Source: a virus. From it: a stretch of 14,188 bases of DNA. The position numbers were made by a program, and so were the translations under genes. Shown here piece by piece: positions 11,174 through 14,188 of the stretch. The number at the start of each line of letters is the position of its first letter. Position 1 is the first letter of the stretch. The stretch lies in UHGV virus genome UHGV-1657534; one strand, given 5' to 3'. Under the pieces are notes generated by a model. That model did not search any database. It had not been told where the DNA came from and saw only the letters and a program-made list of their open reading frames with translations.

Positions 11174-11249
11174 TGGCGATGGTGGATGGATTTGAACCAT
11201 CGACCCGTTGATTAACAGTCAACCGCTCTAACCGCTGAGCTACACCATC
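11174..11249 (-). tRNA. tRNA-Asn (anticodon GUU)
   Basis: Minus-strand 76-nt GATGGTGTAGCTCAGCGGTTAGAGCGGTTGACTGTTAATCAACGGGTCGATGGTTCAAATCCATCCACCATCGCCA. Perfect acceptor, anticodon (GTTGA/TCAAC) and T stems, anticodon loop CTGTTAA, encoded CCA. Separated from tRNA-Thr by 2 nt. Probably the P1 trnA equivalent. Confidence 0.85.
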
Positions 11250-11714
11250 ACTTGCCGGGTACGTCTCCGGCGAGGGCTTCCACCTCCGTATGCTTTTCGG
11301 CGCACCGCGCCCTGGCTGCAATTCGGTAACAGGGGATGCACAACCCTGGCTTCCAGCGTGATTAGCGCCTTCAGCATGACGGGATATACCCGTAAATTCG
11401 TGGAACTGTACCCAAAGTGCTGTTAAGCACCGCTGTTACGCTGAAAAGAAGACGCAACAGGAAAGGACGCTGACCAACAGATGGCCCCTTCTCGTTCATC
11501 TGGTTAATCACACCAGCGCCCTTACCTGTTGTGCCTCCCCGTTCCCTAATACACAGACGGGGACACTCTGCGGTCGATTTTTTGACGGGGGACGACTCAT
11601 ACCCCGTGGCGTCTGGCTTCTTAGGCCGCTACCATCATCAGATCATCGTTTGCATTTACTTTAATGGTCAGTTTCTAAACCGCCGCAAAGTCGCTAACCA
11701 TGACGAAAACCCTG

Positions 11715-11740
11715 AAAAAAACGCCCACCCGAAGATGGGC
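11715..11740 (-). terminator. rho-independent terminator (UUCG tetraloop hairpin + U7) downstream of the methyltransferase gene
   Basis: The minus-strand RNA reads GCCCAUC-UUCG-GGUGGGC (7-bp stem including one G-U, UUCG loop; plus 11723-11740) followed by G and UUUUUUU (plus 11715-11721). It lies 185 nt downstream of the MTase stop codon. Confidence 0.6.
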
Positions 11741-11904
11741 AAACTGGAAGCTCGTAACGCACTTCGGTGTTGCCACTTAGGCGTATGGTCAACCTGGCAA
11801 CTCGGCGTCATGAGGGGGAAGGAGTCACTACCCCGCCATACTTGCCGCCGCGCCTGTCGCGGCTAACAGCTAAATCGCTCTATAAATCACGATTCATTGA
11901 GGCG

Positions 11905-11934
11905 ATATTACACTAATAAATTTATTAGAGCAAT
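11905..11934 (-). promoter_or_regulatory. P1 C1-repressor operator (17/17 consensus match) with overlapping inverted second site, embedded in a sigma70-like promoter
   Basis: The minus strand reads ATTGCTCTAATAAATTT (plus 11918-11934), identical to the P1 C1 operator consensus as I recall it. A second site in opposite orientation, ATTACACTAATAAATTT (plus 11907-11923, 15/17), overlaps it by 6 bp, giving the palindrome CTAATAAATTTATTAG. On the minus strand TTGCTC (-35), a 17-nt spacer and TAATAT (-10, plus 11905-11910) form a promoter reading toward the terminator and tRNA genes. The operator overlaps the last codons and tandem TAA TAA stops of the MTase gene. Confidence 0.6.
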
Positions 11935-14153
11935 ATTGCTATAACGTCATGAGCAACACCTCGAGTGTCCCCCTTACAAGACACAGAACGTCTGGCAAAA
12001 AGAGGTTCCACTCTGAAGCCACTGTCCTGATAAAGTTCTCTGATGTTTGGCGCGCCACTGTTAGTAATGAGAACCTTTGCACCTCGGCGATGAGCATCCG
12101 TCAACAGAGACACCAGGCGTTTTTGCTCTTCAAACTTAAAGTCATGACCGGAATAGTTCGTGAATCCCTCTGTATTTGGGAGCGGTTCATACGGCGGATC
12201 GCAAAAGATGACATCTCCTTCTCCGGCAGCTTCAATCACCGCAGCAAAATCACCACATACAAACTCAGAACGCCCTTCCGCACCAAGGAAGGCTTCCATC
12301 TCCTGCAATGGGAAATACGGAGTTTTATACTTCCCATAACCGACATTGAACTCACCGGCTTGGTTGTAACGCGTCAATCCGTTAAAACAATGTCGGTTCA
12401 GGAACAAAAACGCCGCTGCGCGATGTAAATCATCATAGACTTGTTTGTTAAACGCATTCCGTACTGCCAGGTATCCTTCCTGCGTGTTGTAGTCCTGGAA
12501 GAAACGATGTGCCAGAGTGATAAGTGAATGCGCCTCGCGTTGCAGAGTCTTGTAAAAGTTAATCAGGTCAGCATTCACATCATTTAGCAGATTTTCCTGG
12601 TATCCGGCATTCATGAAGACAGCTCCGCCACCAACGAAAGGTTCAATCAGGCGCTTCCCTTCTGGCAAATAGCGAAAGATTTGTTCCAGAACACCAAATT
12701 TTCCACCAGCCCATTTGAATATGGACCGTTCGAATTCTGCCGCTGGTTTAACTTTTCGCTCTTTTGTTTCACTTCCTTCTTTCTGCCGACATGCAGCCTT
12801 GGTAATCCGCTCGCCAATCCAGCGCATTACTGGTATCGCCATACTATTGCCGATCGCTTTGTAACGAGGTCCGTCAGCTGCAAGCATGGCGGCCTCTTCT
12901 TCACTTAAATCAGGATCGTGATTGCGAAGGTATATAAGTTCATCTGAAGTAACTTTCTTACGCTTTCCCGTTGGAATCAACGTATGTCCATCAGGAAAAC
13001 CTTGCAGCCTTTCACATTCGACAGGAGTCAGACGGCGAACGCTCATCATATGAGGTAAGTAACCATTCTCACCTAATTCGCCTTTTTCAATACTTTCCTG
13101 CCCCCAAAAAGATAACGCAACGGCGTCAGCTGTTGCGCGGGAATCAAGAGTAAAACTTATCTCTTTTTGCCACCCTTTACCCTGCGGTCCAGCATCATCT
13201 TTTCGCCCAATTTGTGCATGTTGTAGCGAATACGCAACAGCTGGTGGGCATCCCGCGTTTTGATTGCTATTAGCAGAGTTACCAGCTCGTAAAGTTGGGG
13301 AAATCTCACCACCCGCATCCTGCCCATAATTTTTGCTTGTAAACGCAATAGCTTTCTTGCAAGAAAACACAATTGGAGCTTCATGATTACAAGTAAGAGT
13401 AGGTGATGTCCCATCATTTTTTATTTCTGCCCCCCCTTGCCCATGCGCCATGCAATACACAAGTCCGCTGCCTCGCTGCGCAAAAATCTCTTGGTTACTT
13501 GCACCAATCCCACCAGTATTGTGTGACTGGTTAAGTGTCGGGTGAGGATTTACAGGGTTATCCCAATGGCTCCCGCTTTTAATGCCATTTCCAACATTTC
13601 CGGCAACTTCCTTCCCCTCGCCTCTGCTCGGCGCAATATCCCGGCGCACGCCTTCGAACTCAAAAAGTACCGTTGCGGGATCGAGGTCTGTTCGAGCACT
13701 TGCGACAACAAACACGCGTCGGCGTCGTTGTGCCACTCCGAAGTATTGGGCATCAAGGATTCTCCAGGCCACTTTTCGCTGCGGTCCATAAATACAACCA
13801 CACTGCGGCCACTTTGGAGCATGGCAACCGGTTTTGACATCCCACCGCCAGAATGCGTTACTTTTTCCTGATTCAGGTCGATCACCTGGTTCGAATGGCG
13901 CATCTTCTCCAGCCAATCCGGCAAGGAAACATCCGAAGGCGTTATCTGCCGATGACAAGACTCCTGGGACATTTTCCCAGACGATAACTGCTGGTTTGAG
14001 AAATGACTCAGCCCGTTTGTCGTCAATTGCATTTGCAAGCTCCACATACTTTAAAGTTAGCGCGCCACGCTCATCATCAAGCCCACCACCTAATCCCGCG
14101 ATACTGAATGCCTGACAAGGTGTTCCCCCGACGAGCACATCAGGGGATTCGAT
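11925..14153 (-). CDS. dmt: bifunctional DNA methyltransferase: C5-cytosine MTase domain fused to Dam-like N6-adenine MTase domain (P1 Dmt-like); 5' end truncated by contig end
   Basis: Single minus-strand frame of about 743 genomic codons. N-terminal part has C5-MTase motifs IV (GTPCQAFSIAG), VI (VIVWENVPG), VIII (VAQRRRRVFVVAS), IX (RRLTPVECERLQGFPDGH) and X (KAIGNSMAIPVMRW). C-terminal part aligns by eye with E. coli Dam (FKWAGGKFGVLEQIFRYLP..EPFVGGGAVFMN...NRHCFNGLTRYNQAGEFNVGYGKYKTPYF...CDPPYEPL). Motif I (FxGxGG) is absent because the ORF runs into the adapter; the ORF-track start is a GTG inside the adapter. Ends in tandem TAA TAA. Confidence 0.85.
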   Translation of the reverse strand: MESPDVLVGGTPCQAFSIAGLGGGLDDERGALTLKYVELANAIDDKRAESFLKPAVIVWENVPGVLSSADNAFGCFLAGLAGEDAPFEPGDRPESGKSNAFWRWDVKTGCHAPKWPQCGCIYGPQRKVAWRILDAQYFGVAQRRRRVFVVASARTDLDPATVLFEFEGVRRDIAPSRGEGKEVAGNVGNGIKSGSHWDNPVNPHPTLNQSHNTGGIGASNQEIFAQRGSGLVYCMAHGQGGAEIKNDGTSPTLTCNHEAPIVFSCKKAIAFTSKNYGQDAGGEISPTLRAGNSANSNQNAGCPPAVAYSLQHAQIGRKDDAGPQGKGWQKEISFTLDSRATADAVALSFWGQESIEKGELGENGYLPHMMSVRRLTPVECERLQGFPDGHTLIPTGKRKKVTSDELIYLRNHDPDLSEEEAAMLAADGPRYKAIGNSMAIPVMRWIGERITKAACRQKEGSETKERKVKPAAEFERSIFKWAGGKFGVLEQIFRYLPEGKRLIEPFVGGGAVFMNAGYQENLLNDVNADLINFYKTLQREAHSLITLAHRFFQDYNTQEGYLAVRNAFNKQVYDDLHRAAAFLFLNRHCFNGLTRYNQAGEFNVGYGKYKTPYFPLQEMEAFLGAEGRSEFVCGDFAAVIEAAGEGDVIFCDPPYEPLPNTEGFTNYSGHDFKFEEQKRLVSLLTDAHRRGAKVLITNSGAPNIRELYQDSGFRVEPLFARRSVSCKGDTRGVAHDVIAILL

Positions 14154-14188
14154 CTTTCTCTTATACACATCTCCGAGCCCACGAGACT
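14154..14188. other. Illumina Nextera adapter / Tn5 mosaic end, reverse-complement copy (sequencing artefact)
   Basis: 14157-14188 TCTCTTATACACATCTCCGAGCCCACGAGACT is the reverse complement of bases 3-34 of the window. There is one mismatch at 14156 and the last 2 nt are absent, so the exact genome/adapter boundary is uncertain within 14153-14157. Confidence 0.9.

Follow-up and report, generated by a model that had tools for sequence, protein, structure and literature searches.

The virus genome UHGV-1657534 (14,188 nucleotides, nt; this whole stretch, one strand read 5' to 3', is referred to below as the window) contains on its minus strand, between a methyltransferase gene and a group of transfer RNA (tRNA) genes, a short leader in which a predicted pseudoknotted RNA element is followed by a strong intrinsic terminator. 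This leader (11715 to 11904) had been singled out by a sequence-only reading, made by a model from the letters and their open reading frames (ORFs), as a candidate short operator-controlled transcript. From the methyltransferase stop codon to tRNA-Asn there are 681 bases, which share 99.0% identity with phage P7 and 96.8% with P1, and the part that holds the unit and its operator (11700 to 11935) is 100% identical to several P7-type plasmid prophages of Escherichia coli, Escherichia fergusonii, and Salmonella. By these identities, the window is a P7/P1-type plasmid prophage. The 747-amino-acid ORF at 14168 to 11925 corresponds to dmt, as it encodes D12 N6-adenine and C5-cytosine methylase domains, and the ORF at 8739 to 7369 corresponds to ban, as it encodes a DnaB-type helicase. 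tRNA-Asn (11249 to 11174), tRNA-Thr (11171 to 11096), and tRNA-Met also lie on the minus strand in a P1-like order, tRNA-Asn and tRNA-Thr being the first annotated products past the terminator. The interval is very probably the promoter-proximal leader of the C1-repressed ban operon and, at the same time, the 3' untranslated tail of dmt.

Upstream of the leader, a C1 operator matching the consensus ATTGCTCTAATAAATTT at 17 of 17 positions (Op72a, or Oban-a; 11918 to 11934, minus strand) is overlapped by an inverted partner that matches at 15 of 17 (Op72b; 11907 to 11923, plus strand). The bases homologous to Op72a are annotated in P1 as a monovalent operator, and the pair as the bivalent operator Oban-ab (formerly Op72ab), lying over the sigma-70 promoters P1ban and P2ban; the P7 record annotates Op(ban) at the homologous bases and states that it controls the tRNAs and ban. 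Carried over from the P1 RefSeq annotation by collinear alignment, P2ban has its -35 element at 11950 to 11945 and its -10 element at 11924 to 11919, and P1ban has them at 11933 to 11928 and 11910 to 11905 (TAATAT), both on the minus strand. The mapped P1ban -10 element puts the transcription start near 11898, where the sequence-only reading had placed it, and the paired operators over the annotated promoters bear out the operator control that it proposed. Because a generic sigma-70 scan of the window made no call for these promoters (together, Pban), Pban rests on the curated P1 annotation. The unit is not, as had been suggested, a newly found self-contained small RNA, since the P1 record already lists the promoter, the operator, and a "dicF-like region." Elsewhere in the window, on the plus strand at 1484 to 1500, ATTGCACTAATAATTTT resembles a C1 operator and matches the consensus at 15 of 17 positions.

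The unit ends at an intrinsic terminator (11715 to 11741, minus strand), located by scanning and by folding. Its 8-base-pair (bp) stem, TGCCCATC/GGTGGGCG, is closed by a UUCG loop (11741 to 11722) and followed by a run of seven T residues at 11721 to 11715 (U7 in the RNA). The scan count alone is not above that of shuffled sequences (2 overlapping matches versus 1.5 expected). The hairpin and U-run are kept in all P1-type records, in D6, and in D6-like plasmids, with one compensatory variant of the stem (GCCCACC/GGTGGGT), and the UUCG terminator that had been predicted at 11715 to 11740 is thereby upheld. It is the only strong minus-strand terminator from Pban to ban, which lies ~3.2 to 4.5 kb downstream of Op72/Pban. 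From the start to the end of the U-run, the unit as computed here measures ~184 nt, close to the 170 to 180 nt first estimated. Because a strong terminator thus lies ~184 nt after a C1-controlled start, while the annotated targets of Op72 (the tRNAs and ban) lie beyond it, both a short terminated RNA and read-through transcripts must exist. The sequence-only reading had offered, as an alternative to a small RNA, a terminator that simply ends the methyltransferase mRNA and a promoter that reads through to the tRNAs; with ban and the tRNAs annotated under Op72/Pban, both outcomes are needed and the two do not compete.

Three features separate the start from the terminator. The first is a 5' leader hairpin (AAUCG...CGAUU; 11873 to 11894, minus strand), present in both the minimum free energy and the centroid folds and specific to the P1 lineage, its conservation having been looked at among close relatives. 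The second is the conserved element, of ~100 nt (11766 to 11864, minus strand), which scores 104.5 bits with our model R1, and the third is a variable spacer of ~24 nt (11742 to 11765, minus strand). Five helices are predicted within the element. S1 is a short hairpin (11861-11858 with 11852-11849). S2 (11847-11844 with 11806-11803) encloses the variable hairpin S3 (11834-11831 with 11818-11815). S4 is a pseudoknot that pairs GUAUGG in the S2 domain with CCAUAC in the S5 loop (11841-11836 with 11788-11783), and S5 is a 7-bp hairpin (11801-11795 with 11775-11769). Compensatory changes are seen in S2, S3, S4, and S5. Copies in lambdoid phages and prophages carry an extra outer closing helix, S0, that is not conserved in the P1 lineage.

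In an alignment of 74 distinct copies of the element, standard pairs were present in 97.1% of cells, versus 21 to 57% after the partner strand was slid by one to three columns, and the observed covariation score was reached by none of 500 column shuffles; kinship among the copies inflates both of these controls, and individual pair switches are the more telling evidence. S4 reads GUAUGG/CCAUAC in the window and in the Qin prophage of E. coli K-12, and GCAUGG/CCAUGC in P1 and, separately, in lambdoid copy L525. S2 reads CGGU/ACCG in P1 and Qin, and CGGC/GCCG in the window and lambdoid copy L453, while S5 reads GUUGUCA/UGACAAC in lambdoids and GUUGCCA/UGGCAAC in P1 types and lambdoid copy L488. 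The switches in S2, S4, and S5 each occur in both P1-type and lambdoid backgrounds. S3 takes at least seven different stem sequences, all foldable and with pyrimidine-rich loops, and the loop residues of the element are invariant. A covariance-model search with Rfam 15, a check that the sequence-only reading had named, gave no family matching the element, either at the gathering threshold in the window or at E<=10 over 11200 to 11960; known riboswitch and ribozyme classes were rejected on this result.

Within the P1 lineage (the window, P1, three divergent plasmids, and D6, plus one metagenomic variant), the element and the terminator hairpin are conserved and the spacer is variable. The constraint in the interval is, on this sequence evidence, on base-pairing and not on coding, and the conservation among P1-like genomes, another check named at the outset, is one of RNA rather than protein. 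The sole minus-strand ATG frame in the interval (11811 to 11668, 47 amino acids) runs through the terminator hairpin and has lost its ATG in P1, which reads ACAAACC where the window has TCATGAC; we rejected it as a protein. P1 and the window differ in the interval by one 3-nt and one 1-nt indel, the latter in the U-run, where it would shift any frame that crosses it. A plus-strand frame of 111 amino acids (11531 to 11866) does cross the U-run and was likewise rejected. No conserved ORF lies between promoter and terminator, in line with the original statement that the unit holds no convincing one. "Hypothetical protein" genes are called in public records over the element and a transfer-messenger RNA (tmRNA)-like module downstream of it (plus-strand 11531 to 11866 in the window; also in SJ46, JL22, and several plasmids). 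Given the 1-nt indel that separates P1 from the window in the U-run and the covariation seen at the RNA level, we judge these calls to be spurious.

The "dicF-like region" of the P1 record spans 68791 to 68892, which corresponds to ~11811 to 11706 of the window. Compared with Qin, the window resembles the ~100 nt directly upstream of DicF (the ydfC-dicF spacer) and not the 53-nt DicF RNA. The homology behind the label is that of a predicted discrete pseudoknotted RNA, not of DicF RNA. The Rfam DicF model (RF00039), which scores 76.7 bits in both Qin and phage mEp460, gave no match in the window at the gathering threshold (48 bits), nor at E<=10 over 11200 to 11960, the lowest stringency among the thresholds tried. 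The ftsZ start region also formed a weaker duplex with the P1-type 3' part than the mean of shuffled controls, with 446 of 500 shuffles equal or better, a result that we use as a weak negative because the method is crude and returns implausibly long interrupted duplexes. On these two grounds, we rejected membership of the DicF family.

The element itself is widespread. A sensitive BLAST search with 11700 to 11900 matched window positions 11862 to 11765 at 75 to 83% identity in 45 non-P1 phage records, among them mEp460, Ayreon, cdtI, Stx2c and PPompW phages, Salmonella phage F1055, and one record deposited as an Actinobacillus phage. It is present in 4,411 of 5,426 complete E. coli genomes (81%), with a median of two copies and a maximum of eight per carrier, almost always unannotated. 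A contig scan with a 15-base pattern returned almost only chance matches, the sole true one being a copy in Escherichia albertii (locus L027; 117 bits with R1). All 123 sampled DicF copies are preceded by the element; its core motif is exact and lies 54 nt upstream in 119 of them and differs by point changes in the other 4. An intrinsic terminator follows the core motif by 59 to 106 nt in each of 76 distinct downstream flanks from viral contigs and phage records. The terminator hairpin itself varies: it is DicF in some loci, a DicF-like hairpin with a shared GGCGG/CCGCC base and a different apical loop in others, unrelated in Salmonella phage F1055, and the UUCG hairpin in P1 types. Lambdoid phages have the element in the early-left operon, just past the repressor gene and ahead of kil or dicB and exonuclease/recombination genes, in some cases with no ORF, or only a tiny one, between promoter and element. 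Across 59 sources (626 kb), R1 matched once per locus and never on the opposite strand.

We found no account of the element, or of antitermination at Pban, in the literature searched; a preprint on the P1vir transcriptome does not address the Pban leader. Relative to the P1 record, Rfam 15, and that literature, the homology to a discrete pseudoknotted RNA, the obligate link to a terminator, and the presence in most E. coli genomes appear to be new.

Two of the loci carry further RNA features. In the record deposited as Actinobacillus phage vB_Apl-pPE4 (L006), the DicF-like terminator unit past the element is tandemly duplicated (~3090 to 3260); this genome otherwise has the look of an E. coli-type lambdoid phage, with DicA, Kil, and exonuclease VIII. 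In phage Ayreon (L005), on the strand opposite the element, the rightward operon contains an Rfam C4 antisense RNA match (80.7 bits) beside an isrK match (58.9 bits) at 529 to 717, a pair that is, by its model scores, a P1 immI-type RNA module outside P1; isrK also matches in Salmonella phage F1055. The C4 antisense RNA of immI, a non-coding regulatory RNA of P1/P7 that is processed from an operon leader, is comparable to the unit described here but belongs to another locus and family, and its model (RF01695) has no match in the window.

The ydfC-dicF locus of the dicBF operon, in Qin and other lambdoid prophages, provides the closest comparison. As in P1, the same ~100-nt element (~80% identity) is followed by an intrinsic terminator and by operon genes that need read-through, so that the P1 unit has the architecture of a DicF-type locus, an upstream element and then a terminator-bearing 3' RNA within an operon. 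For the prophage locus, both a short ydfABC-dicF transcript and a full dicBF transcript have been described. P1 differs in lacking the 53-nt DicF, with no RF00039 match and no ftsZ complementarity, in not conserving the outer helix S0, and in the position of the element, which is ~35 nt from a repressor-controlled promoter in P1 and in the ydfC 3' untranslated region, ~1 kb from the promoter, in the prophages. The P1 terminator lies 184 nt beyond the dmt stop codon, and late dmt mRNA must also run into the element and terminator, a layout even closer to that of the ydfC 3' untranslated region.

Given the preserved helices and the homology to the DicF locus, a terminated RNA of ~184 nt under C1 control is reasonable to expect. 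It could be a trans-acting small RNA (sRNA) of the DicF type: the whole transcript, or a 3' fragment of ~45 to 60 nt freed by RNase E, would be bound by Hfq through the hairpin and U7 and pair with host or phage mRNAs, with the 5' element as a stabilizing or processing domain. Its position is homologous to that of DicF, which is itself made by early termination and RNase E cleavage, and Hfq-dependent sRNAs typically carry a hairpin followed by a U7 tail. The P1 3' part has CAGUUUGCCCAU in common with the DicF-locus variant L138, and other lambdoid variants keep the GGCGG/CCGCC stem base with differing pyrimidine-rich apical loops, as swappable seeds would. However, the negative results with the DicF model and the ftsZ start region both count against such an RNA, and the lambdoid element is cut away from mature DicF, so that DicF function does not explain its conservation. 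The spacer also argues against it. A spacer bearing a DicF-like seed would be expected to be conserved, yet this is the least conserved part of the leader, with indels and substitutions inside the P1 lineage (variants of +4 nt, of +4 nt with substitutions, and of -10 nt, and a longer replacement in L458). A DicF-like seed there is unlikely, other modes of action remaining. The proposal of a small regulatory RNA thus gained RNA-level constraint, a noncoding interval, and homology to a DicF-producing locus, while the DicF model, the spacer, and ftsZ spoke against it; overall, we consider a DicF-type sRNA unlikely.

The reading that we favor, tentatively, gives the element a cis-acting role, that of controlling whether transcription runs on past the neighboring terminator to the tRNAs and ban. 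RNA polymerase very probably starts at Pban under the control of Op72ab and transcribes the 5' hairpin, the element, the ~24-nt spacer, and the strong terminator. Polymerases that stop there would release a noncoding RNA of ~184 nt, and those that pass would make the tmRNA-like RNA, tRNA-Asn, tRNA-Thr, the tci genes, and ban. Acting on the nascent transcript or on the elongating polymerase, the element would set the proportion that pass, in a role akin to that of the HK022 put RNA or an attenuator rather than that of a base-pairing seed, and the terminated RNA would be a by-product or, as DicF is in the prophage version, a secondary regulator. This is the simplest reading because the element sits between promoter and terminator in P1 and right before a terminator elsewhere, while the terminator and its spacing vary. 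A more specific version, which we regard as doubtful, is that the element belongs to a novel class of cis-acting RNAs and, alone or with host Nus factors, causes E. coli RNA polymerase to pass the next terminator.

The put sites of HK022 are the functional parallel that we favor. The putL RNA modifies RNA polymerase without any protein; put RNA acts through the beta' zinc-binding domain of the enzyme, to which it binds, and reduces pausing and termination. In HK022 PL is followed by putL and then, ~40 nt later, by a terminator hairpin. Both put and the P1 element are structured cis RNAs just past an early repressor-controlled promoter and just before a terminator, in a phage without an N-type protein, and in both cases downstream genes depend on read-through. 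They differ in that put is ~70 nt long, forms two stem-loops without a pseudoknot, and occurs in two copies, whereas the P1 element is ~100 nt long, has five helices including the pseudoknot, and is single-copy. Homology to put was rejected at the sequence level, as putL gave no convincing alignment by inspection and R1 has no match in the HK022 locus.

Lambda-type nut sites share the early-left operon position, and S1 is a short G+C-rich hairpin with a purine-rich loop of 5 to 6 nt, resembling boxB; in lambdoid copies it is preceded, by inspection, by a boxA-like GCUCU/GCGCUU stretch. The conserved structure is, however, far larger than a boxB hairpin, and PHROGs detected no N-type antiterminator among nine ORFs near the element, the hits being families of unknown function, Kil, and exonuclease. 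We know of no N-type protein in P1 and, to our knowledge, no protein antiterminator acts at Pban. The lambda 6S RNA and StxS, made from PR', are examples of a promoter-proximal terminator that yields a short noncoding RNA as a by-product of read-through control; these depend on promoter-loaded Q protein.

Several findings weigh against a cis-acting role. Inspection showed no conserved alternative structure in which the element pairs with the arms of the terminator, which argues against a classical overlapping riboswitch or attenuator; the arms vary between variants and have no conserved complement in the element, a result that does not address a non-overlapping design. The element has neither sequence nor model similarity to put. 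Each phage has exactly one copy, and neither the rightward operons nor other parts of the loci covered (for P1/P7, the window) hold a second one in the manner of putR, so that the one-copy-per-early-operon arrangement of HK022, left and right, is not reproduced. The covariation is drawn from few lineages, whose sequences are closely related, and some paired changes could have been carried jointly by recombination. Finally, D6 (L255) lacks the element while retaining the hairpin, the U-run, and all that follows, so that at least one relative can do without the element. D6 is a clean deletion of the element relative to the D6-like plasmid L418 (NZ_LR890273), whose own copy combines a Qin-type S3 hairpin with a P1-type S5 helix and has no Op72 operator or promoter in front. 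This pair of genomes offers a natural test case for the need for the element.

That D6 lives without the element would also fit a leader with no dedicated function, in which the terminator simply ends the late dmt mRNA and the likeness to the dicF locus is a relic of recombination between mosaic prophages. Phage genomes are mosaic, and the terminator does lie shortly (184 nt, as given above) past the dmt stop codon. Against this, compensatory substitutions keep the helices in several backgrounds, loop residues are invariant, and the element persists in four-fifths of complete E. coli genomes at a median of two copies per carrier, and we regard a functionless leader as very improbable.

The read-through transcript from Pban would next contain the tmRNA-like module (11536 to 11710, minus strand), an unannotated stretch of 175 nt past the terminator. 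It has the resume codon and tag frame of a tmRNA, with a pseudoknot before them and pseudoknots after them: a PK1-like fold is followed by the resume context AUAAAU-GCA, a tag ORF of ten codons and a stop (ANDDLMMVAA; 11653 to 11621), and two further pseudoknots, PK2 (11607 to 11573) and PK3 (11570 to 11536), whose helices covary. Relatives with 70 to 88% identity, also unannotated, occur in 328 phage records, including P1 types, HK620, Drexlerviridae, N4-like Schitoviridae, and Ackermannviridae. The 29 distinct tag DNA sequences from phage records and viral contigs all have ten codons and TAA, fit the pattern A-N-[DE]-[DENS]-x-[FMVY]-[LM]-[AIMV]-[AV]-A, and vary mostly at third codon positions.

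A tRNA-like domain (acceptor stem with G3:U70, T-arm, and CCA) was not found inside the module. ARAGORN with default settings called no tmRNA, either in the window or among 79 distinct loci, and Rfam was negative at the gathering threshold, below which there is a partial tmRNA match of 24 bits at the module. With relaxed settings, ARAGORN gave a complete tmRNA at 11775 to 11323, which we rejected because the 3' strand of S5 serves as its 5' acceptor strand, the stem has a mismatch, and both G3:U70 and CCA are missing. The module may be a split tmRNA, a decoy, or a relic. No tmRNA-like module of enterobacterial phages is described in the literature searched. A tag-coding RNA without a tRNA-like domain, conserved in phages of several families, temperate and virulent alike, is a hint that trans-translation is disturbed or reused by phages, and it may matter more than the leader.

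Another reading is that the hairpin, and perhaps the element, belong to the downstream RNA array (the tmRNA-like module, its hairpins, and the tRNAs) as a 5' boundary or processing signal. In D6, which has no element, the hairpin, U-run, and tmRNA-like module are kept as one block; in other phages, the module always starts right after the 3' strand of a long hairpin, and the sequences that flank the lambdoid element upstream are similar to the 3' strands of "module stems" near the tmRNA-like module. A hairpin with a U7 tail is nevertheless a textbook terminator, and lambdoid phages have the element with no tmRNA-like module behind it; we find a boundary or processing role improbable.

These long module stems (CAGGUAAGAGCAUU ... 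AGUGCUCUUUCCUG) flank the tmRNA-like module in many phages (L254, L266, L272, L308, and others). The stem in the window (11532 to 11455, minus strand) is ACAACAGGUAAGGGCGCUGG ... CAGCGUCCUUUCCUGUUG; P1 and D6 differ in it by compensatory changes, and the 3' strand of the module stem holds UGCUCUUU, which resembles rrn boxA. In two viral contigs (L308 and L272), the module stems contain tRNA-like inserts that have an acceptor-like stem, a D-like arm, and a T-arm with GGUUCGAAUCC and lack an anticodon arm. A degenerate counterpart lies in the window just upstream of tRNA-Asn (11368 to 11330, minus strand), with GCG-CUAAUCA-CGC and CAGGG-UUGUGCAUC-CCCUG. In HK620 (L254; 15838 to 15893 and flanks), the module is in the late leader, with the annotated qut site of PR' on one side and the tQ terminator on the other, and would therefore be part of the short constitutive PR' transcript.

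The element merits a family entry even if it is not an antiterminator, as it is now unannotated or buried under spurious "hypothetical protein" calls. The P1 ban helicase has its operator ~3.2 to 4.5 kb away across a strong terminator, an arrangement for which the literature searched offers no explanation, and dicB, kil, and the recombination genes of DicA-type prophages sit behind the DicF terminator, their expression equally unexplained; both cases can now be tested. The purpose of a ~100-nt RNA that is kept in most E. coli genomes likewise becomes a testable question. If the element does prove to be an RNA antiterminator, it would be a second, structurally unrelated counterpart of put, serving the ban operon of P1 and P7 and the early-left operons of DicA-type lambdoid prophages and present in about four-fifths of E. 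coli genomes, and put would no longer be a one-phage curiosity.

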